Part shown: in pieces, positions 7,842 through 47,848 of the stretch
Layout of the letters: each line of letters opens with the position of its first letter
How positions within the stretch are numbered: the stretch's first letter is position 1
Program-made: the position numbers and the translations under genes
The notes under the pieces: model-generated
Told to the model about the DNA's origin: nothing
Database searches by the model: none
What the model saw: only the letters and a program-made list of their open reading frames with translations
NCBI GenBank assembly: GCA_948442365.1
Contig: CAOJRU010000004.1
Span: 4,304 to 68,303, forward strand
Direction of reading: 5' to 3'
Source: an uncultured Clostridium sp.
Lineage (GTDB): Bacteria; Bacillota; Clostridia; TANB77; CAG-508
Length of the DNA stretch: 64,000 bases

Positions 7842-7902
7842 TTATGCCTCCCTTTTGCTATTATTGTTACGTTTTAATTTACATGGCAAGGACAAGTAAT
7901 TT

Positions 7903-7985
7903 TCAAGTTTCGACTTTTGCAAGTAAAGATTATAAAATAGAAAAATTATATATTATAACCTCCACTTGCAAAAGCCGAAACCTGA
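7903..7985. repeat. intergenic hairpin repeat, family A copy 1 (22-bp arms, ~39-nt loop)
   Basis: tcaagtttcgacttttgcaagt ... acttgcaaaagccgaaacctga, 20 of 22 complementary. The loop contains aaattatatattataacctcc. A second copy lies at 13257..13329. Confidence 0.6.
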
Positions 7986-8108
7986 ATGTCCTTACTTTTC
8001 ATTGACAAATAAAATAAAAATATAATATAGAATAAAGGTGTACTTTTACCATATAAATCAATACTATTTCTTTACATTTTCAATCTTCTATTCTTCCTAA
8101 TGATTTTC

Positions 8109-8696
8109 CTATGTTTGTGGTACTACTTGTGTACCTGAAACAATTACCTTGAAAGTATAAGTAGCAATATCTTTTGCATTTTGTGTATCAATTTTGTCAT
8201 TTTCTGCTATTTCTGTTTCATTGTTTCCTGTTTCGTAATCCCATTTCCAATGAATTGTTAAAGTTTTGATTTTGTTTTCATCATTGGCATGAATCGTTCC
8301 TGATAAATTATTTTGTAACTCATTTACCGAACTGTATTCTTGCCCGTCATAGACAAATTTTAAGTTGGTTGGTTTGGTACTTTCTTCTGTAAATTCAATA
8401 CAATAATTAATCCCTACATCCGATCCTGTTCCGTCTACCATAATGTTAAAACTTCCCCTTGTGCCTGGTGCTATTTTATTATTTACTAATGTTTCATTAT
8501 TACAAGTAGAAGCTAATTGAATGGTTTGCACTTGTTCTTGTTGTCCATTAACTTTAAAACTCCATGTTGCTACTTCCGCTATTCCATCTCCTCTTACTTC
8601 TGATACATATTTAGAATAACTTTGACCTCCTATAAAGGATACAATAACACAAGATAAAATAGCTATTATGGCTATTATTTTTTTCTTTTTGCTCAA
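8109..8696 (-). CDS. secreted protein, paralog of 6705..7313 (TasA/camelysin-like, tentative)
   Basis: The track ORF extends to 8831, but AGGAGG lies 8 nt before the in-frame TTG at 8696. The product starts (M)SKKKKIIAIIAILSCVIVSFIGGQSYSKYVSEV, a signal peptide with a GGxSY motif reminiscent of SipW-cognate signals. It shares KIAPGT and IHWKWDYE motifs with 6705..7313. Confidence 0.5.
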   Translation of the reverse strand: MSKKKKIIAIIAILSCVIVSFIGGQSYSKYVSEVRGDGIAEVATWSFKVNGQQEQVQTIQLASTCNNETLVNNKIAPGTRGSFNIMVDGTGSDVGINYCIEFTEESTKPTNLKFVYDGQEYSSVNELQNNLSGTIHANDENKIKTLTIHWKWDYETGNNETEIAENDKIDTQNAKDIATYTFKVIVSGTQVVPQT

Positions 8697-8993
8697 TAAG
8701 CATGCCTCCTTTCTTTTTAAATTTTTCGTTTGGATTTTTTTCGATAAAATTTTCGAATTAAAATTTCTTTGAATGAATATAGAAATTTGAAAATGTATCC
8801 ACATTATAATCCCATTTTTTGGAATTGTCAATTATTTTTCATCGCAAGTTTCGACATTTTTTGAGATTTGTAAAAATAAAAATTTAACTCTTGACTTTTC
8901 CAATTTTTTACAATATAATGTTTAATATTTTCTATCTTTTATTTCTTATATTTCCCCTTAAAATTATATATAAACTGAAAGGAGGCATGTTTA

Positions 8994-9443
8994 TTGCACA
9001 AAAAAACAAAAATTTTTATCGCTTTATTTTTTATCTTTATTTTTAGTATCTTTTCTCAAACTGCTTCAGCTAAATATGTAATAGAAGATATCCAACTGGT
9101 AGCCAAAATAGATATTGACCGCTGCCAACCTAATATTCAACTTATGGATATTACTTCTTCGAATACTAATTATTCAACCTATGCCAATCAAAATCATTTA
9201 ATCACTGGACATCTCAAAATAATAGAAAAAAATATTACTCGAAATGATTTATCCATAGATAATATAAAAGTTATCGTTAATAATGATTTGGTTACTCCTG
9301 AATTTAAAAGCTTTTTTCTAGTTTCTGAAAATGCTATTGAAAAATTATACGAATTTTCTTTTACACATACAACCAGTAATGGTTCTTTAACTCTGATGAT
9401 TCCTGAAGGGGTTGTAGAGGATAAATCACGGTTTAATCAATGA
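8994..9443 (+). CDS. secreted protein, N-terminal part (signal peptide); probably the 5' piece of a frameshifted gene that continues in 9418..10347
   Basis: Signal peptide MHKKTKIFIALFFIFIFSIFSQTASA. It ends at a TGA at 9441. The +1 frame is open from 9418 to 10347 with no RBS or credible start. Confidence 0.5.
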   Translation: MHKKTKIFIALFFIFIFSIFSQTASAKYVIEDIQLVAKIDIDRCQPNIQLMDITSSNTNYSTYANQNHLITGHLKIIEKNITRNDLSIDNIKVIVNNDLVTPEFKSFFLVSENAIEKLYEFSFTHTTSNGSLTLMIPEGVVEDKSRFNQ

Positions 9444-11066: not shown

Positions 11067-11280
11067 ATTAATGTGTCTTTTCTTATTCATAATAAACACA
11101 TTAATTATTTTACCCTATCTCTACCCCATTTGTCAACTACTTTCTAAAAATATTTACTTCTTTTTAAATTATTTCTCCTTATTATTCATCCTACGTTTTT
11201 TCTTAACTAATAATTTAAAACCATAAACTTTAACTCTATGTTCAAAAAGAACTGTCCATCATGTACAATCAAAATAGCTC

Positions 11281-13203: not shown

Positions 13204-13256
13204 AATTACTCTCTCCTTCTTTTTCCCTCTCTTCTAAATTATTACCTTATTTATTT

Positions 13257-13329
13257 TCAAGTTTCGACTTTTTGTAAGTGTAAAAAAATTATATATTACA
13301 ACCTACACTTACAAAAAGCCGAAATTTGA
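13257..13329. repeat. intergenic hairpin repeat, family A copy 2, in the radA-disA spacer
   Basis: tcaagtttcgactttttgtaagtgt ... acacttacaaaaagccgaaatttga, 23 of 25 complementary. The loop aaaaaaattatatattacaacct resembles the copy 1 loop. Confidence 0.6.
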
Positions 13330-13335
13330 ATTTTT

Positions 13336-14704
13336 TTATCCTATTGCTTTTTTGATTGCTTCCTTTACATTTCCAACGCCTATTATATCTAATTTATATT
13401 TATCTTTCAAGTCTTTTTTGTTACTTTCTGGAATAATACAAGATTTAAAGCCTAAACGTTCCGCTTCTTTTAGTCTTTTTTCGATTAAATTAATTCTTCT
13501 AACTTCCCCTGTCAAGCCAACTTCTCCCATAATTACCATATCTTTTGGAATAGGACTATTTTTAAAGCTAGAAGTTGTTGCCATAATAATTCCTAAATCA
13601 ATAGAAGGCTCATTAATTTTTAATCCACCAGCTACATTTAAGTAAACATCTTGTGTTCCTAACATAAGTCCTGCCTTTTTTTCCAAGACAGCAATTAGTA
13701 AAGATAATCTATTAAAATCAATTCCATTGGCTGTTCTTTTCGCATAACCAAAAGCAGTTTGTGCCGTCAAAGCCTGCAATTCCACTAAAATTGGTCTTGT
13801 CCCTTCCATACTAGAAACAATGCAAGAACCGGATGGATTATCTTCTCGTTCTGAAATCAAAACATCAGATGGATTTGTAATTTCGCACATTCCCTCTTCT
13901 CTCATCTCAAACATGCCAATTTCATTTGTAGAACCAAATCTATTTTTTACACCTCTTAAAATTCGATAAGAAAAATATCTTTCTCCTTCTAGATACAGAA
14001 CCGTATCTACCATATGTTCTAACACTCGTGGACCTGCAATATTGCCTTCTTTGGTAACATGTCCAATAATAATGGTAGTAATGGCCCTAGATTTGCAAAC
14101 TCTCATAACTTGAGAAGTAATTTCTCTTACTTGACTCACACTTCCAGCTGCTGCTGATAATTCTTCTGAATACATTGTTTGAATGGAATCAATAATAACT
14201 AATTTAGGGTTATTATCTATAATTGCTTGATTTACAATATCAATATCGGTTTCCCCTAAAAATAAAATATCCTCATTATTGATATGCAATCGATCTGCTC
14301 TCATTTTTATCTGTTCGGCTGATTCTTCTCCTGAAACATATAAGACTTTTCCTTCTCCTTTTACTTTATCACAAATTTGAAGAATTAAGGTAGACTTTCC
14401 AATTCCTGGTTCTCCTCCGCAACAAAACAAGTGAACCTTTTACTAATCCGCCACCTAACACATTATCCAATTCTCCAAATCCAGTGGAAGTTCTTATGGT
14501 TTCCTTTGCCTCATAAGAATTTAACTTTTGTGGTATATTGCTTCTAACATCTTTTGACTTTAAACTGCTATTTTTGCTTTCTACTATTTTTTGTTCAAAA
14601 AAACTGTTCCAATTATTACAAGCTGGACACTTACCTAGCCATTTACTTGACTCATTTCCACATTCATTACATACAAAAATTGTTTTACTTTTTGCCATGT
14701 CCAT
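13336..14704 (-). CDS. radA: DNA repair protein RadA/Sms, split by a single-base frameshift near 14433
   Basis: ORF 14369..14704 encodes the zinc-ribbon N-terminus (FVCNECGNESSKWLGKCPACNNWNSF ... ELDNVLGGGLVKGSLVL). ORF 13336..14430 resumes one frame over with CCGGEPGIGKSTL (Walker A) and the Lon-like C-terminal domain. Removing one T from the T-run restores GSLV-CGGEPGIGKST. Confidence 0.85.
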
Positions 14705-15059
14705 TGGGGATGGTTCTTTATGGACATTGTATTCCTTGTTAGAACCACGTTCGTTACAGGTGTTACCTGTAATGCAATATGTTTTTCCTTTTCAATCCCA
14801 TATTTTGGAACGTTTCCCCTCCTCCTTTCGTTACTTTTTTGTTTAATTACTCTTTCTACTTAAACCTATCTTTCTTGGTTATTCTATTTACCTCTACTCT
14901 ATTAAAACAAAAAAAGTATAGCATAATTTGGTTTAATTTGCTATACTTTTTAATTAATTCACTGAAAAATTACAATCTCTTGATTTTTTTATCCTATTTT
15001 TTCGTGTTATCTATTTAAAATGCTACAGCTAGCAATCCCAGCTGGACATCAAACAGATA

Positions 15060-15386
15060 TTATTTGCTTCTAAAAGAAACTTCTTGGAATAAGAAATCAT
15101 GTACTTTTTCCCAAGTAATTTCTTGGTGTAAAAATTCGTTGATTTCATCTTCTACTTTTTGTTGATATGGCGTTAATTCAACTTTTATTTCTCTGTTCCA
15201 ATCTATATCTTGTAACCAAAATGCTTTGAATTTGTTCCATAATCCTACTTTAGCTGGCAAGTTTCCTCCTGCTTGTCTAATGGTTCCTGCATTTTCTTGT
15301 ACTGGCTCAGCATTTCCTTCTAATCCGTTTAATTCTACTCCTCCAAATACTCCTGATACTTTGTTTACTTCTCCTAAATCTGCCAT
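15060..15386 (-). CDS. hypothetical protein with a Gly-rich N-terminal region and a charged C-terminal region
   Basis: 108-aa ORF MADLGEVNKVSGVFGGVELNGLEGNAEPVQENAGTIRQAGGNLPAKVGLW... No family recognised. Confidence 0.4.
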   Translation of the reverse strand: MADLGEVNKVSGVFGGVELNGLEGNAEPVQENAGTIRQAGGNLPAKVGLWNKFKAFWLQDIDWNREIKVELTPYQQKVEDEINEFLHQEITWEKVHDFLFQEVSFRSK

Positions 15387-17992: not shown

Positions 17993-18312
17993 TGCTTCTC
18001 TTCCCTTCTTGTTTACATTTCTTTTTTATTACAAATTTGTTACAATTATATTACAAGCTTTTTAATTTATCAAGACTTTTCATTGAATTTTTTTATTTTT
18101 TATATTATAATATTTAAAAATAGTACGTTTTGGTTGTTTCAAAGTTCACTTTCACCTCTTGGGATAGGACAATTTGCCTTTTCTTATGACTTCTTGATTG
18201 GAACGAGAAAGAGAAATGGTTAGTAAGAAAATGAAGAATGTTCAAGGCAAAAGCAATGTTTTATCTATGAAAGAATCAAAACTTAATTTAAACGTATGGA
18301 CAGGAGGTAATT

Positions 18313-20156: not shown

Positions 20157-20251
20157 ACGAATCACAAGGAATTGTCAAAAGCTCCATTTGCAATGGTAGA
20201 CGCTTGACAACTGCTAGCAATGTCCAAAAAGAACCATCCTCAATGGACACG

Positions 20252-32214: not shown

Positions 32215-32482
32215 TTTAAGTTTCAAGTTTTTTTGGTAAGATTAGCTCCCACCTCTTGGCATATAATATGGTTATTTTTCATAAATTCTTCGGTTCCCTT
32301 CATAATTCAAGGAATTCTAATATAATTTTACGGGTCCTTTCCAAGACAAGCTTGAACTCTTACCGTAAAATGATTAAGAATTCCTAATCTTACTCCAGTC
32401 ACATTCATCTTTTATTCAAAATAACCATATTATATGCCAAGAAGTAGAAGCTAATCTTGTGAGAAAAAAACCGAAACTTAAA
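32215..32482. repeat. structured intergenic element, family B copy 1 (about 268 bp; ~64-bp terminal inverted repeats; conserved ~110-nt core hairpin)
   Basis: Outer arms tttaagtttcaagtttttttggtaagattagctcccacctcttggcatataatatggttatttt (left arm) and aaaataaccatattatatgccaagaagtagaagctaatcttgtgagaaaaaaaccgaaacttaaa (right arm). The core aggaattctaatataattttacgg...ccgtaaaatgattaagaattcct is homologous to 47625..47829. Confidence 0.7.
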
Positions 32483-33969: not shown

Positions 33970-34112
33970 TTTTGTATTCTAACATTTATTTTTTTCGTTT
34001 TCAATACCATTTTTACTTTACAAGAAAAAAATCGAAACTTAAATTTTCATTTATTCTTGAAACTAATTTGCTGTTATGTTATCATAATAGCAAATTAGTA
34101 AGGAGATTATCT

Positions 34113-37277: not shown

Positions 37278-40200
37278 TTAATTATTTTTTTCTATCTGCT
37301 TTTCTTCTAGTTCCTCTTCTTCTATCTCCTCTTTTTCTTCTGGTTCTTCTTTTACTTCATCTTTTGGTTTTTCTATCAATTCTCCTTCTGTTTCTTCTTC
37401 CATCGTATCTGGTAATGAGTCTACTATTGGTAATTCTTCTTGCATTTCTGTTTCTTGTTTTACTTCATTTTTTTCTTCTGGCACTTCCATCATAAATGTT
37501 CTAGTAGTTACTGTTTCAAAAAGCATTTTGTTATTTCTTAATACTATTTTACTGTTTCCTTTGAACATTCCTACCATTTCATTTGGTTGCATATTTGCTT
37601 GTTGTGTCTTATTGGTCGAAGTATTATTATTGTTTGTTAATTTTACTTCAATGTAATATTCTTTGCTTGTATCTAAATCATATACTACTCTATCATAGTA
37701 GTAATTTAATCCACCTTCATGTACTACATGCATTCCCATACTATAACTTCCATCCGTTGCTTTTAATGTCATTTCTGGCAATCCATTTGGAATATTGGCT
37801 ACTCCATCTACCCATTCTGCTATTAAAATATTCCCATGTATATATTCTCTTCCTATTTCATTGAAATCAATATGCATTGTCTTTAAGTCTGTATTAATGT
37901 CTCCTTTGTATTTGCTTCCATCTTTCATCTTAATCTTATTGTCTTCTGCTACTAATTTAATGGCATTGTATTTTCCTATTTGTTTGTTTGGTAATTTAGC
38001 AATTTGTACCGTATTGGTTGAAATATTATTTCCATTTGTTAATTTTACTTCTATCACATATTCTTTGCTACTGTCTAAATTGTCCATTACTCTGTCATAG
38101 GTATAGCTTAATCCTCCATTATGTGCTAGATGCATTCCTGTCCAGAAACTTCCATCGGTTGCTTTAATAATCATTTCTGGTAATTTATTTGGTACATTCG
38201 CTACACCATTAATCCATTCTGCTATTAAAATTTCTCCATAAATGTAATTTCTTCCTACCTCATTTTGAGCTAAATCAATTGTTTTTAAATCTGTATTAAT
38301 ATCGCCTCTATATTCATTTCCTTTGAATACTATCTTATTGTTTTCTATGGTTAAGTTTTTGTCTTTGAACATACCTACATTTCTTGAAGCATTTAAGTTT
38401 GCTCTTTGTTGTTTGTTGGTTCCTATATTTTTATTTCCCGTCAATTTTACTTCTATATAGTATTCTTTTTTGATATCTAAATTATCAATTACTCTGTCAT
38501 AATAATAATTTAATCCGCCTACATGTGCTACATACATTCCCATACTATAACTTCCATCCGTTGCTTTTAATGTCATTTCTGGTAAGCCATTTGGTGTATT
38601 AGCCATTCCATCAACCCATTCTGCTATTAAAATATTTCCATGTAGATATTCTTTTCCTACTTCATTGATTCCTATATACATCGTTTGTAAATCAGTATTA
38701 ATATCCCCTTTATATAAGCTTCCGTCTATCATTTTTATTTTATTATTTTCTGCTATTAATTTTACTTGATCATATTTGCCAATTTCTTTATTTGGCAATT
38801 TAGCTATTTGTGCTTTGCTGTTTCCTTTATTATTGATACCTGCTAATTTTACTTCAATTTCATATTCTTTTGTTACATCTAAATTATCTACAACTCTGTC
38901 ATACGTATAACTTAGTCCTCCATTATGCACTAAATGAATTCCTGTCCAGAAGCTTCCATCCGTTGCTTTGATAATCATTTCTGGTAATCCTTCTGGAACA
39001 TTAGCTACTCCATTTATCCATTCTGCTATTAAAATTTCTCCATAAATATAATGTCTTCCTACTTCATTTTGAGCTAGATTAATTGTCTTTAAGTCTGTGT
39101 TAATGTTTCCTACATATACTGGTTTTATTTTATTATCTTCTAGTAATAGTGTTCTTCCTTTAAAAGTTCCAATTTCTTTATTTGGTAGTAATACGGTTTG
39201 TGTCTTTCTGTTTCCTATATTATCCTCTCCTGTTAAAGTTGCCTCTATATAATATTGTTTTGATAAATCGATTTCATCAATAAACACATCATAATAATAA
39301 TTTAATCCTTGTAAATGGCTAATATACATTGGAATATTTCTTGAGCCATCGGTTGCTTTTAGCACTAATTCTGGTAATGAATTTGGTACATAAGCAACAT
39401 TGTTTTTCCATTCTGCTACTAACATATTTCCACTAATATAATATCTTCCTTGTGCATTTTGGTTCAATTTTATTTCTTTTAAGTCAGTATTAATATCTCC
39501 TATATACCCTCCAGTAGAGAAATAAATTTTATTGTTTTTGGTTTTTATGGTAGTTCCTTTATATTCTCCTACTGTCATATTTGGCATATTTACGTTCTGT
39601 GTCTTATTGGTTGATATATTTTTATCTGTTGTCAATTTGGCTTCTAAATAATATTCTTTATTTGTATCTAAGGTATCTAATATTCTATAATAAGAATAAC
39701 TTAATCCTCCATTATGAGTTACATTGATTCCTTGCACAATACTTCTGTCCGTTGATTTAATTGTCATTTCTGGTATCGTTTTTGGTACACATGCTACCCC
39801 ATTCACCCATTCTGCTATTAAAACTTCTCCTGTTATATAACTTCTTCCATCTGCTTCTTTTCCGATTTGCATCGTTTTTAAATCTGTATTGATGTTTCCG
39901 TAATATTCAGGATTTGGCTCTTGTGAAAGTGTTGCTGGCATATTTTCATAAATTGGAATTACAAATTCAAAATCTCTATTTAATAATAATTTTGCTCTAT
40001 TATAGGCATCATACATTAAACTAGCCTCATTTTTAGCAGCCAATAAGTTTTGCATATATTGATGCCAATATAAACCACTATAACTATCATCCACATCAAA
40101 TTTTTGTAAATATAAGGTATTTTGTCCTACATTAAGATATTTGTCCTTAATAAAAGTTCCTCCGCCTGCAATGGATAATGATCTAGATGTCCAATTTTCT

Positions 40201-40922
40201 CGTAGTGCTCTGGCTAATCCATTCGTTTTTACCTCTGCTGGACTGTTTCCTGTTGCTCCTATACTAAATAGATTATATAACCCTTTATAAACTACGCCAT
40301 TGGTTCCTAAATATTCTTCTCCTGAACTTAAGGTAGAAGTTCCTGAGCTTCCTTGTTCTTGGATCGTTCTAGTTACCAAGTGAAAGGCATTTATATTATT
40401 GTCACGTGCTGCATTGTAAAGAGCAACTATGTTATCCCAATCTTCTGTTAAAAAAGAATTTTGTGCCGCTATATGAATGGCTTTTGTATCTAACGTACCT
40501 GCAGAAGTATCTAATTTTTGAAATTGAAATATATTTTTGGCATCCAAATATAAGCGTGGATCCATTAAGTATTTTATCGCTTCTTCTGACGCACAATACC
40601 ATCCTGTATCATATAATTTAGAACCACAATCTGGGCATCTCCACTCTTCTGAATAATTATTTGGTACTAGGTTTCTTCCATGAACTCTTTCATTTCTAAT
40701 AACCGTTTCCCAATCTAATTTTGTATATAAAACTTTTATCTTTGGATAAATGGTTTGTAATTGTTTTATTTTATCCTTATAACCAGGATATTTTGCCTCA
40801 TCAATCCCATTGATATCTGAGCTAATAGTAGCAGCTTGTACTTTACCTGTGTATAATAAAATAGCCACTAATACAGCCAATAAAAATATTCCGATTTTCA
40901 TAATCTTATGTACAAATTTCAT
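37278..40922 (-). CDS. secreted peptidoglycan hydrolase: N-terminal GH73-like N-acetylglucosaminidase domain, 7 repeats of a ~125-aa module, and an E/K-rich tail
   Basis: Signal peptide MKFVHKIMKIGIFLLAVLVAILLYTGKVQA. Catalytic region with GQNTLYLQKFDV...GLYWHQY (glucosaminidase-like). The repeats share GDINTDLKT...ILIAEW.NGVAN.P...PEM.IKATDGS...H.GGL.Y.YDRV.D.LD..KEY.IEVKLT. The last ~330 aa are identical to 41207..44530. Confidence 0.65.
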   Translation of the reverse strand: MKFVHKIMKIGIFLLAVLVAILLYTGKVQAATISSDINGIDEAKYPGYKDKIKQLQTIYPKIKVLYTKLDWETVIRNERVHGRNLVPNNYSEEWRCPDCGSKLYDTGWYCASEEAIKYLMDPRLYLDAKNIFQFQKLDTSAGTLDTKAIHIAAQNSFLTEDWDNIVALYNAARDNNINAFHLVTRTIQEQGSSGTSTLSSGEEYLGTNGVVYKGLYNLFSIGATGNSPAEVKTNGLARALRENWTSRSLSIAGGGTFIKDKYLNVGQNTLYLQKFDVDDSYSGLYWHQYMQNLLAAKNEASLMYDAYNRAKLLLNRDFEFVIPIYENMPATLSQEPNPEYYGNINTDLKTMQIGKEADGRSYITGEVLIAEWVNGVACVPKTIPEMTIKSTDRSIVQGINVTHNGGLSYSYYRILDTLDTNKEYYLEAKLTTDKNISTNKTQNVNMPNMTVGEYKGTTIKTKNNKIYFSTGGYIGDINTDLKEIKLNQNAQGRYYISGNMLVAEWKNNVAYVPNSLPELVLKATDGSRNIPMYISHLQGLNYYYDVFIDEIDLSKQYYIEATLTGEDNIGNRKTQTVLLPNKEIGTFKGRTLLLEDNKIKPVYVGNINTDLKTINLAQNEVGRHYIYGEILIAEWINGVANVPEGLPEMIIKATDGSFWTGIHLVHNGGLSYTYDRVVDNLDVTKEYEIEVKLAGINNKGNSKAQIAKLPNKEIGKYDQVKLIAENNKIKMIDGSLYKGDINTDLQTMYIGINEVGKEYLHGNILIAEWVDGMANTPNGLPEMTLKATDGSYSMGMYVAHVGGLNYYYDRVIDNLDIKKEYYIEVKLTGNKNIGTNKQQRANLNASRNVGMFKDKNLTIENNKIVFKGNEYRGDINTDLKTIDLAQNEVGRNYIYGEILIAEWINGVANVPNKLPEMIIKATDGSFWTGMHLAHNGGLSYTYDRVMDNLDSSKEYVIEVKLTNGNNISTNTVQIAKLPNKQIGKYNAIKLVAEDNKIKMKDGSKYKGDINTDLKTMHIDFNEIGREYIHGNILIAEWVDGVANIPNGLPEMTLKATDGSYSMGMHVVHEGGLNYYYDRVVYDLDTSKEYYIEVKLTNNNNTSTNKTQQANMQPNEMVGMFKGNSKIVLRNNKMLFETVTTRTFMMEVPEEKNEVKQETEMQEELPIVDSLPDTMEEETEGELIEKPKDEVKEEPEEKEEIEEEELEEKQIEKNN

Positions 40923-41206: not shown

Positions 41207-44200
41207 TTATTTACTCTCTTTCATTTTGTCTTTTTCTTCTTGTGTATCGTTTTTTTCTAACTCTTCTATTTCTTCGCTTTCTTTATCTTCTGCTTTTTCT
41301 TCTTTCTCTTCTTTTTTCTCTTCTTCTATTCTTGTATTTTCTATCGAATCTGTTGTTGGTAACTCTTCTAATATTTCAGTTTCTTGCTTTATTTCTTCTT
41401 TTTCTTCTGGTTTTTCTATCATAAATGTTCTAGTAGTTACTGTTTCAAAAAGCATTTTATTATTTCTTAATACTATTTTACTATTTCCTTTAAACATTCC
41501 TACCATTTCATTTGGTTGCATATTTGCTTGTTGTGTCTTATTGGTCGAAGTATTATTATTGTTTGTTAATTTTACTTCAATGTAATATTCTTTGCTTGTA
41601 TCTAAATCATATACTACTCTATCATAGTAGTAATTTAATCCACCTTCATGTACTACATGCATTCCCATACTATAACTTCCATCCGTTGCTTTTAATGTCA
41701 TTTCTGGCAATCCATTTGGAATATTGGCTACTCCATCTACCCATTCTGCTATTAAAATATTCCCATGTATATATTCTCTTCCTATTTCATTGAAATCAAT
41801 ATGCATTGTCTTTAAGTCTGTATTAATGTCTCCTTTGTATTTGCTTCCATCTTTCATCTTAATCTTATTGTCTTCTGCTACTAATTTAATGGCATTGTAT
41901 TTTCCTATTTGTTTGTTTGGTAATTTAGCAATTTGTACCGTATTGGTTGAAATATTATTTCCATTTGTTAATTTTACTTCTATCACATATTCTTTGCTAC
42001 TGTCTAAATTGTCCATTACTCTGTCATAGGTATAGCTTAATCCTCCATTATGTGCTAGATGCATTCCTGTCCAGAAACTTCCATCGGTTGCTTTAATAAT
42101 CATTTCTGGTAATTTATTTGGTACATTCGCTACACCATTAATCCATTCTGCTATTAAAATTTCTCCATAAATGTAATTTCTTCCTACCTCATTTTGAGCT
42201 AAATCAATTGTTTTTAAATCTGTATTAATATCGCCTCTATATTCATTTCCTTTGAATACTATCTTATTGTTTTCTATGGTTAAGTTTTTGTCTTTGAACA
42301 TACCTACATTTCTTGAAGCATTTAAGTTTGCTCTTTGTTCTTTATTGGTTCCTATATTTTTATTTCCTGTTAATTTTACTTCTATATAATATTCTTTTTT
42401 CGTATCTAAATCATAGATTACTCTGTCATAATAATATTTTAGACCTCCTAAATGTGCTACATGCATTCCCATACTGTAACTTCCATCGGTTGCTTTTAAT
42501 GTCATTTCTGGTAAACCACTTGGAATATTGGCTACCCCATCTATCCATTCTGCTATCAAGATATTTCCATGTATATATTCTCTTCCTACTTCATTTACTC
42601 CAATATACATCGTTTGTAAATCGGTATTGATATCTCCCCTATAAATACTTCCATCTATCATTTTTATTTTATTATTTTCTACTACTAATCTTACTTGATC
42701 ATATCTTCCAATTTCCTTATTTGGCAATTTTGCTATTTGTGCTTTGCTGTTTCCTTTATTATTGATACCTGTTAGTTTTACTTCAATTTCATATTCTTTC
42801 GTTGGATCTAAATTATCCATTACTCGATCGTACGTATAACTTAATCCTCCATTGTGTACTACATGCATACCTGTCCAAAAACTTCCATCCGTTGCTTTGA
42901 TAATCATTTCTGGTAATCCTTCTGGGATATTAGCCACTCCATCCATCCATTCTGCTATTAAAATTTCTCCATAGATATAATGTCTTCCCACTTCATTTCT
43001 GGCTAGGTTAATTGTCTTTAAGTCAGTATTAATAGCTCCTATATATGTTGGTTTTATTTTGTTATCTTCTAGTAATAGTGTTCTTCCTTTAAAAGTTCCA
43101 ATTTCCTTATTTGGTAATACTATAGTTTGTGTCTTTTGCTTTCCTATATTATCTTCTCCTACTAACGTTGCTTCTAAATAATATTGTTTTGCTAAATCTA
43201 ATGTATCTATTGCTACATTGTATTGATAATTAATTCCACTATCATACGTAATATTGACTGGTCTATCGATACTGTTATCTGTTGCTTTTAATCTTACCAC
43301 TGGCATTTTCTTTGGTATATTGGCTACTCCATTCACCCATTCTGCAATATATAGATTGCCTGAAATAGTATTTCCTTTTAGTTCTATTTGTTTTAAATCG
43401 GTATTAATATCTCCTACATATTCACCTGTTGAGAAATAAACTTTATTGTTTTTCGTTTTTATCGTAGTTCCCTTATATTCTCCTACTGTCATATTTGGCA
43501 TATTTATTGTCTGTATTTTATTATTTGATACATTATTAGCTGAAGTTAACTTAGCCTCTAAATAATATTCCCTATTAATATCTAAGGTATCTAATATTCT
43601 ATAATAAGAATAACTCAATCCTCCATTAGGAATCACATTCAATCCTTGTATAACTGCTCCATCGGTTGATTTGATTGTCATTTCTGGTGTACCATTTGGA
43701 ATATTGGCTACTCCATTCACCCATTCTGCTATTAGTACCTCTCCTGTTATATAGCTTCTTCCATCTGCTTCTTTTCCTGTTTGCATCGTTTTTAAATCCG
43801 TATTGATATCTCCTACATAGTCTCTTCTAAATAAATCTTTATTGGCAATAATCGCTTTTGCATCTGCTTCTGCCATTTTGTTTAACATAGCATCATTTAA
43901 ATAATGTTCTCTATCATAAGCGTTATTAATAAAAGCATGTTCTACTAATACAGCTGGAATATCCATATGCATTGGCCAACTTATAATACCATAATAATCA
44001 GCAACCGTTCCATCTGGATAGATGTCATTTGGTGTTCCTACTCTTACTTTTGGCTTAAAAGCAAAAGAACTAACTCCCACATTTCTTAAATTTTGTAATA
44101 TATCTTCTCCTAATTTATTAGAATATTCAAAATATCTTCTTTGTTTGGTATTATGTGTCACATATACTTCTGCTCCTGATAACCTACTAGAAGAATCGTT

Positions 44201-44530
44201 TGAATTAATATGAAAACTTACTAATAAATCGGCATTATTTTCTTTGGCTCTTTGTGCTCTTGGATATCTATCTAGTGTTTCCCAATCTTCCTTTGTTAAA
44301 ATCCCCTTAATTCCTGGTGTGGCATCTAATATTTCCTTTACTCTTACTGCTATTTTCCATGTTAAATCTTTTTCCACTAATGTTCCACCTTGTGCTCCTG
44401 GTTCACTTCCCCCATGTCCTGGATCCAGTGCTACTATAATATCATTTGCTGCATAACTGCATGTAGTAACAAGTAAGCATAACCCCATAAAAATCAATGC
44501 TGTCATTATTTTTATTCTTTTTTCTTTCAT
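41207..44530 (-). CDS. secreted N-acetylmuramoyl-L-alanine amidase (Amidase_3) with 7 repeats of the same ~125-aa module and an E/K-rich tail
   Basis: Signal peptide, then IIVALDPGHGGSEPGA...NADLLVSFHINS (Amidase_3 zinc ligand region). The C-terminal ~1 kb of DNA is near-identical to 37440..38400 (offset 3929; identical embedded track ORFs 37583..37864 and 41512..41793). Confidence 0.75.
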   Translation of the reverse strand: MKEKRIKIMTALIFMGLCLLVTTCSYAANDIIVALDPGHGGSEPGAQGGTLVEKDLTWKIAVRVKEILDATPGIKGILTKEDWETLDRYPRAQRAKENNADLLVSFHINSNDSSSRLSGAEVYVTHNTKQRRYFEYSNKLGEDILQNLRNVGVSSFAFKPKVRVGTPNDIYPDGTVADYYGIISWPMHMDIPAVLVEHAFINNAYDREHYLNDAMLNKMAEADAKAIIANKDLFRRDYVGDINTDLKTMQTGKEADGRSYITGEVLIAEWVNGVANIPNGTPEMTIKSTDGAVIQGLNVIPNGGLSYSYYRILDTLDINREYYLEAKLTSANNVSNNKIQTINMPNMTVGEYKGTTIKTKNNKVYFSTGEYVGDINTDLKQIELKGNTISGNLYIAEWVNGVANIPKKMPVVRLKATDNSIDRPVNITYDSGINYQYNVAIDTLDLAKQYYLEATLVGEDNIGKQKTQTIVLPNKEIGTFKGRTLLLEDNKIKPTYIGAINTDLKTINLARNEVGRHYIYGEILIAEWMDGVANIPEGLPEMIIKATDGSFWTGMHVVHNGGLSYTYDRVMDNLDPTKEYEIEVKLTGINNKGNSKAQIAKLPNKEIGRYDQVRLVVENNKIKMIDGSIYRGDINTDLQTMYIGVNEVGREYIHGNILIAEWIDGVANIPSGLPEMTLKATDGSYSMGMHVAHLGGLKYYYDRVIYDLDTKKEYYIEVKLTGNKNIGTNKEQRANLNASRNVGMFKDKNLTIENNKIVFKGNEYRGDINTDLKTIDLAQNEVGRNYIYGEILIAEWINGVANVPNKLPEMIIKATDGSFWTGMHLAHNGGLSYTYDRVMDNLDSSKEYVIEVKLTNGNNISTNTVQIAKLPNKQIGKYNAIKLVAEDNKIKMKDGSKYKGDINTDLKTMHIDFNEIGREYIHGNILIAEWVDGVANIPNGLPEMTLKATDGSYSMGMHVVHEGGLNYYYDRVVYDLDTSKEYYIEVKLTNNNNTSTNKTQQANMQPNEMVGMFKGNSKIVLRNNKMLFETVTTRTFMIEKPEEKEEIKQETEILEELPTTDSIENTRIEEEKKEEKEEKAEDKESEEIEELEKNDTQEEKDKMKESK

Positions 44531-47595: not shown

Positions 47596-47624
47596 AATCT
47601 CTCCTTTAATTAGTACTTTTCAGT

Positions 47625-47829
47625 TAATACTGTCAACCTAAAATATTATCCTAAAAAGGAAGACAGTTCGTTCAAGCTAATTTTCGTAGAAATTCTAAAT
47701 CCATTTTATGGCACCCTTCCACGTACAAGACGTGAACTCTTTCCATAAAATGAATTAAGAATTTCTATCTCAATTACTTTCAATTCACTGTCTTCCTTTT
47801 TAGGATAATATTTTAGGTTGACAGTATTA
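47625..47829. repeat. structured intergenic element, family B copy 2 (perfect 43-bp terminal inverted repeats; conserved core hairpin)
   Basis: taatactgtcaacctaaaatattatcctaaaaaggaagacagt and its exact reverse complement 120 nt downstream. The core tagaaattctaaatccattttatgg...ccataaaatgaattaagaatttcta is homologous to 32215..32482. Confidence 0.75.
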
Positions 47830-47848
47830 GTTGAATCGTAACATTAAT

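Follow-up and report, generated by a model that had tools for sequence, protein, structure and literature searches.

Two short spacers in the genome of an uncultured Clostridium sp. hold long hairpins of closely similar sequence, and the question raised by this locus is whether these are signals for the genes around them or pieces of something that once moved. The stretch of 64,000 nucleotides that was analysed here, hereafter the window, has a G+C content of ~29% and carries nearly all its genes on the minus strand, which is the leading strand by GC skew (the plus-strand skew is negative throughout). An earlier note had placed the two hairpins in one family and proposed for them a shared mobile or regulatory origin. 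The two features are the following, with the type of element given as we read it.

7902 to 7986, minus strand: family A copy 1, the left terminal inverted repeat (46 nt) fused to a shortened right repeat; a core-deleted ~189-nt MITE.
13256 to 13330, minus strand: family A copy 2, the left repeat and the first core bases (…TTTACACTTA) abutting the outer 19-27 nt of the right repeat.

Both hairpins were found where they had been reported, with inverted repeats that are one base longer on each side (7902-7986 and 13256-13330). Copy 1 is located within a 267-nt spacer, and its neighbours are two small genes on the same strand, of unassigned family, while copy 2 occupies the 132-nt spacer between radA and disA. 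The identities of radA and disA agreed with their domain content, but the naming of the copy 1 neighbours as TasA-like had to be rejected, because they gave no TasA match and none above the Pfam or NCBIfam curated cut-offs. The arms of copy 1 are 41 nt long with 83% complementarity, and those of copy 2 are 27 nt long, 93% complementary, and separated by 21 nt. On the minus strand, copy 1 folds at -51.2 kcal/mol (z -12.8), compared with -35.1 on the plus strand. Its pairing on the minus strand extends over ~40 bp through five G.U pairs; each of the five positions where its arms differ is a G.U pair in the gene strand, and an A.C mismatch in the opposite one. Copy 2 folds at -33.5 kcal/mol (z -8.5) on the gene (minus) strand and has one G.U pair on each strand. 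The two-armed pattern AAGTTTCGRCTTTT...AAAAGYCGAAA was found twice in the window against 0.00 expected from 100 shuffles, and the outer 19 nt (TTCAAGTTTCGACTTTT...) and an AT-rich inner stretch are common to both copies, which indeed represent one family. The description as a stem enclosing a loop of ~40 nt, however, suited only in part: the hairpins are there, but the stem of copy 2 measures 27 bp and its loop 21 nt. In addition, the 18-nt motif assigned to the loop is not distinctive when taken alone (3 matches in the window against 1.65 expected), and is real only as part of the element. The sole open reading frame over copy 1 is a mechanically listed 70-aa frame on the plus strand. Both hairpins are fixed within the species, their sequences being identical or nearly so in 10-11 of its assemblies, with copy 1 identical in 10. 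The DisA protein is unchanged in the MAG GCA_948709255.1 and in several metagenome assemblies.

Searches for known RNAs and transcription signals gave little at these positions. With Rfam 15 at gathering scores, only tRNAs were detected in the window, and nothing credible was found up to an E value of 5; the best match on copy 2 was a plant microRNA model with 27.7 bits against a threshold of 117, and the full-length family A and B copies of the sister locus described below gave no Rfam match. The terminator scan called no terminator-like site at copy 1 or copy 2, and on the gene strand no U-tract lies 3' of either hairpin, where the minus-strand sequence reads AAAAUUAC and AAAAUAAA, respectively. 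A T-run does follow copy 2 on the plus strand, but this strand has no upstream gene there. The AT-rich interior contains TATAAT, and copy 1 holds one promoter-like match on the minus strand (TTTGCA-16-TATAAT); nevertheless, the promoter-like sites in the two hairpin regions numbered 11 and 3 against shuffle expectations of 11.0 and 3.0, and copy 2 has none, so the suggestion that the loop resembles a -10 or UP-like tract was not supported. The identity of 19-47 nt between unlinked loci and the insertion polymorphism presented below are, moreover, unlike independent signals, and we regard as hardly credible that the hairpins are ordinary intrinsic terminators or promoter/UP elements that are alike by coincidence.

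A longer element was found in a sister lineage, represented by contigs L149-L151, whose DisA is 98% identical to that of the window (P0002). The copies at L149:4052-4236 and L150:4205-4389 are 185 nt long, with perfect terminal inverted repeats of 47/47 bp and a 91-nt core, and those at L149:16630-16818 (189 nt) and L150:17802-17991 (190 nt) are likewise full length; in the three full-length copies other than L149:4052-4236, the repeats measure 44-53 bp. Each of these copies folds at about -84 to -87 kcal/mol. The repeat is made of a conserved terminal ~19 bp (TTYAAGTTTCGRY TTTT...), a variable zone of ~16 bp, and a conserved AT-rich inner 12 bp (TATATAATTTTT). The intact family A element, 185-190 nt long with a non-coding core of ~91-100 nt, cannot accommodate a gene.

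Comparison with these elements indicated how the window hairpins arose. Copy 1 stands at the exact position of the 189/190-nt elements of L149 and L150, with spacer flanks that are 97-99% identical, and is the orthologue of that element minus the whole core and part of the right repeat; thus, the same site is full length in the sister lineage and core-deleted in the window. Copy 2 keeps the left repeat and the start of the core (...TTTTTTTACACTTA), and then jumps to CAAAAAGTCGAAACTTGAA, in the outer right repeat. The join is at TACACTTA, which occurs as a direct repeat at the core start and, in the copy 2 variant, within the right repeat, suggesting that deletion between direct repeats was a likely route. 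At the radA-disA site, the sister lineage has the right half of the element only (L149:9873-9948), which cannot form the hairpin; since the two lineages retain different parts there, their ancestor had a full element at this place. A third copy of the window lineage (L205:513-559), ~6 kb outside the window on its right side, consists of the left repeat alone, and all three family A copies sampled in this lineage are without the core, one arm, or both. The earlier note had interpreted the hairpin as a unit with a conserved, functional loop. This did not hold: what had been taken for a loop is a conserved inner stretch belonging to one of the terminal inverted repeats, which after internal deletions is unpaired in copy 2 and re-paired in copy 1.

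The ends of family A are not confined to these copies. A 16-nt end motif, allowing up to 3 mismatches, was found 8 times in the window against 1.5 expected, and the matches include 8844, both ends of 32216-32481, and 34027-34042. The relationship proposed earlier between the family A ends, the termini of family B, and the solo motif at 34027-34042 was thus confirmed. The other elements recognised in the window are listed here.

8844 to 8875, plus strand: remnant, one terminus (GCAAGTTTCGACATTT…) of a mini-hairpin derivative; motif match with 2 mismatches.
18193 to 18265, minus strand: part of a family B core, located between tsaE and mreB, with 82% identity over 74 nt to the B element of L149.
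32215 to 32482, no strand assigned: family B element of 268 nt, with 58-nt inverted repeats and a core unlike that of family A.
34012 to 34043, minus strand: mini remnant of a B-type element (the solo motif); end-motif match.
47614 to 47840, no strand assigned: hairpin element of 227 nt, with 111-nt arms that are 80% complementary, a family B core, and different termini.

Families A and B share termini of ~17 nt (TTTAAGTTTCRRBTTTTTTT), and the family B copy and the solo motifs are other elements, or remnants of them, with these same ends. At the place orthologous to the 8844 remnant, L150:16890-16945 keeps both termini, one of which was lost in the window; similarly, L155 and L156 read TTTAAGTTTGAATTTTTTCTTGTAACTTAAA at the place of the solo motif, with both termini recognisable. 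The family B copy at 32215-32482 is also an insertion, as it is absent from the orthologous spacers of L160, L161, and L162, which are 48-62 nt long. Three assemblies of the same species break within this copy, as expected for a multi-copy repeat, and in these the opposite family B end adjoins the gene (L155:5275-5341, L156:5223-5280, and L157:4420-4452), indicating an inversion. In further assemblies of this species, among them the MAG with the DisA protein of the window, the 490-aa membrane protein encoded beside it was only 90% identical, and this points to strain-level variation together with inversion of family B in a polysaccharide locus. The near-perfect hairpin at 47614-47840 sits between two glycosyltransferase genes; over 80 nt, its centre is 91% identical to the core of the 440-nt B element of L149, and it is a related non-coding element, not a member of family A.

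The comparison of filled and empty sites provided evidence for insertion. The family A copy in the tsaE-mreB spacer is present in the sister lineage only, and the window, L009, L152, and L011 are without it; in the window, the empty site is 24 nt upstream of mreB, at ~18020. The sister lineage has AAAAAAGAA, element, AAACAAGAA at the filled site, compared with a single AAACAAGAA in the window. The uninterrupted site of the window reads GAAATGTAAACAAGAAGGG, and the filled one GAAATGTAAAAAAGAA, element, AAACAAGAAGGG. The target duplication of family A at this spacer is AAA[A/C]AAGAA, 9 bp with 1 mismatch. A 440-nt family B copy at L149:15282-15720, with the same termini, is flanked by (T/A)AAATTTTT and has no counterpart in L150 or in the window. 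Duplications of 8-9 bp were found at two clean insertions, one from each family, and a single mismatch separates the two members of either pair. No target duplication could be recognised at copy 1, and copy 2 has an approximate one only (GATAAAWAA). In four more distant relatives, DisA being 88-95% identical in those other than L158, which was reached through its RAYT homologue, a hairpin was looked for at the orthologous radA-disA site and not found. The spacer is 15-36 nt long there, compared with 132 nt, element included, in the window species and the sister lineage.

Family A has a narrow distribution. A profile built from four full-length copies matched the window lineage and the sister lineage only, with no match in ~150 kb of other relatives or in 1.08 Mb of unrelated loci, and five family A loci were counted in the ~90 kb sampled from the two lineages. 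The exact two-armed pattern gave two chance matches inside genes of unrelated organisms among 185,579 reference genomes, and the window species was unmatched there. When the looser pattern TTCARRTTTCG...CGAAAYYTGAA was searched in metagenome contigs, no family member was present among the matches listed, at least 120, which were hairpins and high-GC repeats from soil (heptamers of the GTTTCGAG type, in tandem) without relation to it. Two patterns searched in viral contigs gave chance matches only, the full-length element had no BLAST match in plasmid and phage collections, and a full-text search of papers for the terminal 11-mers retrieved unrelated primer sequences only.

The filled and empty sites, the target duplication, and the restriction to two lineages together indicate a mobile origin; the mobile half of the proposed shared origin was thus sustained by the orthologous spacers, and the regulatory or promoter half was left unsupported. 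We consider it very probable that the two hairpins are what internal deletions have left of a non-autonomous DNA transposon (MITE), and that they no longer move. Family A has the structure by which bacterial MITEs are defined (PMC3184786), and is a new family of a kind already known, which is decaying in the window genome. According to this proposal, family A and its terminus-sharing sister family B would have been active in a recent ancestor of the two lineages; later, activity would have been kept in the sister lineage, with decay in the window genome. The element inserts into AT-rich intergenic 9-mers, with duplication of 8-9 bp of the target. This mode of insertion implies a DDE-type transposase acting in trans, by a cut-and-paste or copy-in mechanism, and the terminal ~17 bp, the only part that A and B share, may be what it recognises, presumably one same enzyme for both families. 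No cognate transposase or autonomous element was found in the ten window ORFs tested, which encode glycosyltransferases and housekeeping functions, beside any copy, or in the loci compared, and the elements themselves, with 185-190 nt for A and 268-440 nt for B, are below transposase length.

The sister lineage does carry a gene for a RAYT-like protein (L149:7586-8362; Pfam Y1_Tnp, 3.6e-14; NCBIfam REP_Tyr_transpos, 66.9 bits), which is a single-copy gene near radA, syntenic in L149, L150, and L158. In the window, the syntenic gene is deleted at 14850-14930 on the minus strand, between a 108-aa ORF (15060-15386) and the zinc-ribbon/radA start, and its remains are the sequence just before the start and the 3' end (...aataaccaagaaagataggtttaagtagaaaga...). 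A REPIN-like origin would thus have the hairpins moved in single-stranded form by the RAYT encoded beside radA, with decay in the window lineage following from RAYT loss; consistent with this, the sister lineage has the gene together with intact, perfect-arm elements and lineage-specific insertions, and the window, where the gene is deleted, has truncated elements only. REPINs are also inverted-repeat doublets with long hairpins, in which compensatory changes across the arms are common, and their singlets are regarded as decayed remnants, like the solo termini found here (PMC3116915). However, REPINs have no target duplications and are tied to a flanking RAYT, and the repeat that flanks the RAYT-like gene of L149, L150, and L158 is another one, TGTCCATTGGGGACGGTTCTTTTTGGACA. 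This is the expected RAYT/REP pairing, and the family A and B motifs are not adjacent to the gene. Moreover, L158 has the syntenic gene but no family A or B element in 17 kb. The insertions of both families carry 8-9-bp flanking duplications, and to our knowledge IS200/IS605-type Y1 enzymes make no such target duplications. Because the RAYT gene is flanked by another repeat and the duplications were found at the two clean insertions, REP/REPIN membership was rejected, and mobilisation by this RAYT is in our judgement highly improbable. The RAYT-linked repeat was located at the following positions.

Window, 14698 to 14726, plus strand: RAYT-linked repeat.
Window, 20221 to 20249, minus strand: RAYT-linked repeat.
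Window, 11239 to 11267, minus strand: RAYT-linked repeat, weaker match.
L149, 7351 to 7379 and 8479 to 8507: inverted copies flanking the RAYT-like gene.
L149, 2239 to 2344: REPIN-like doublets of this repeat.

These copies make up a second, unrelated repeat family, TGTCCATTGGGGAYGGTTCTTTWTGGACA, with a 6-bp stem and a 17-nt loop, and the syntenic RAYT gene of L158 has its own repeat variant. L009:3528-3613 and L010:3546-3613, from relatives without families A and B, contain a GC-richer perfect hairpin downstream of obg, with 41-nt arms that are 100% complementary and a 4-nt loop; it seems that each lineage has its own palindromic elements.

Among known elements, family A is closest to AT-rich MITEs that make 9-bp duplications, such as Chunjie, and to hairpin MITEs transcribed together with their neighbours, such as Correia elements and bcr1. 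Correia elements (CREE) of Neisseria are 100-155 bp long, with 26-bp repeats and a TA duplication. Family A is similar to them in combining an inverted repeat with a core, in the probable co-transcription with neighbours, in the existence of full-length and internally deleted classes, and in giving a hairpin RNA that is a plausible substrate for a double-strand RNase (PMC2649163). It differs in the duplication, which is 8-9 bp here, and promoter, IHF, and RNase III functions are demonstrated for Correia elements only. The Chunjie elements of Geobacter uraniireducens are AT-rich, 178-235 bp long, and have 21-bp inverted repeats and 9-bp direct repeats (PMC3184786). Like such bacterial MITEs, the elements reported here are small, non-coding, intergenic, bounded by inverted repeats, and associated with a 9-bp duplication; their predicted RNA hairpins are very stable, and their presence or absence differs among close relatives. 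Unlike Chunjie, with which they have no sequence similarity, their repeats are much longer, at 44-47 bp and reaching 80 bp in family B, family A is without a known parent insertion sequence, and the host belongs to an uncultured, low-GC lineage of Clostridia. Within the Firmicutes, bcr1 of the Bacillus cereus group is also a mobile repeat whose distribution is not conserved between close strains; it is ~155 bp long and transcribed, and its RNA structure is kept by compensatory base changes (PMC3184786). However, bcr1 has a 5-bp duplication and a cruciform-like fold, not a single long hairpin, and no sequence similarity to family A.

One property of the elements speaks against the MITE reading: arms that remain perfectly complementary while they diverge fast between strains would not be predicted from simple neutral decay of a DDE-type MITE. 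In the alignment of seven distinct copies, 98% of the stem cells were paired and 9 of the 47 pairs were doubly changed, values that none of 500 shuffles reached, and when the partners were slid by 1-3 columns the pairing went down to 32-53%. At the copy 1 locus, the elements of L149 and L150, whose DisA proteins are identical, have 10-11 differences per arm; the arms are 76-78% identical, the core 87%, and the elements 82% overall, compared with 97-99% for the adjacent spacers, and despite this divergence the arm complementarity within each element is near-perfect. The tsaE-mreB copies of the same two contigs show two differences in 185 nt, a G-to-A change and a C-to-T change at its partner, with four differences in the 2-kb flanks; by our estimate, two random substitutions would match up in this way with a probability of ~0.001. 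Copy 2, in which the partner is deleted, is however also polymorphic at this G/A position, so a hot spot or inter-copy conversion could explain that pair, and it was set aside as proof of structural selection.

These observations lead to the tentative reading, rather unlikely in our opinion, that the arms are not independent, with complementarity being kept at a fixed site while the middle ~16 bp changes at ~5-10 times the rate of the spacer alongside, and that family A is a bacterial foldback-type transposon that makes a 9-bp duplication. We know of no description of this combination. If true, one arm would be repeatedly copied from the other, or the hairpin would be under strong selection. 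Copying might occur through a hairpin/foldback intermediate in transposition or replication, or by mismatch correction in an extruded hairpin; another possible cause of the concerted change is conversion or replacement of the whole element by other family members. The compensatory arm changes of REPINs (PMC3116915) and bcr1 (PMC3184786) mean that this unusual feature has precedent.

Copy 1 has genes of the same strand on either side, and copy 2 is situated in the radA-disA spacer, so both are probably transcribed within longer minus-strand mRNAs, where they would form RNA helices of 27-40 bp; the ribosome-binding sites of the downstream genes are outside these helices. The hairpins might then be primarily host elements for RNA processing or stability, e.g., double-strand RNase sites uncoupling radA from disA, selected for their structure and with mobility as their origin only. 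The stronger fold of copy 1 on the gene strand (-51.2 vs -35.1 kcal/mol), where all its arm differences are G.U, the pairing across the seven copies, and the near-identity of the window copies in all 10-11 species assemblies are in line with this possibility, and there are precedents in the Correia elements, which are bound and cut by RNase III (PMC2649163), and in the RNA structure of bcr1 maintained through compensatory changes (PMC3184786). The five G.U pairs of copy 1, however, fit an RNA structure and a C-to-T bias of the leading (minus) strand equally, as this bias would yield the same asymmetry, and copy 2, with one G.U per strand, has no strand preference; the asymmetry was, for these reasons, set aside as proof of an RNA function. 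The core is oriented as the downstream gene at the three independent family A insertion loci, but the same orientation at 3/3 loci is not significant. Furthermore, none of the more distant relatives has the element in these spacers, indicating that neither operon needs it, and the two lineages differ in the half that they retain between radA and disA, the one of the sister lineage being incapable of forming the hairpin. A primary role in host RNA processing is thus improbable, and for the remnants of a MITE that we favour, any present effect, such as cleavage by a double-strand RNase or a block to 3' exonucleases, would be a by-product.

For annotation purposes, the hairpins should be masked as MITE remnants and not listed as regulatory RNAs, terminators, or promoters. 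The elements likewise account for the places where contigs of this uncultured Clostridia lineage break off. Their presence in two sister lineages and absence at 88-95% DisA identity marks a very recent split, and strains or lineages could be told apart by this family. With the concerted change of its arms, it offers a small, tractable case for the study of inverted-repeat homogenisation in bacteria. The intact copy at L149:4052-4236, with a fold of -84 kcal/mol, is 24 nt upstream of the mreB start codon and downstream of the only obvious promoter-like sequence, and is therefore apparently inside the mreB 5' leader, where it represents a natural test of how much structure is tolerated in such a leader.

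Two further arrangements were observed in the window. At 8677-8722 and 8968-9013, a 46-nt inverted repeat (83%) covers the start of each gene in a divergent pair, both strands having the same ribosome-binding site and start region (AAAGGAGGCATG...), which suggests divergently duplicated 5' ends of paralogous small secreted proteins. On the minus strand, 37278-40922 and 41207-44530 are adjacent, very large ORFs of 1214 and 1107 aa, both built of ~402-nt (134-aa) tandem repeats that are 62-100% identical within and between the two genes, and their products are probably repetitive surface proteins.
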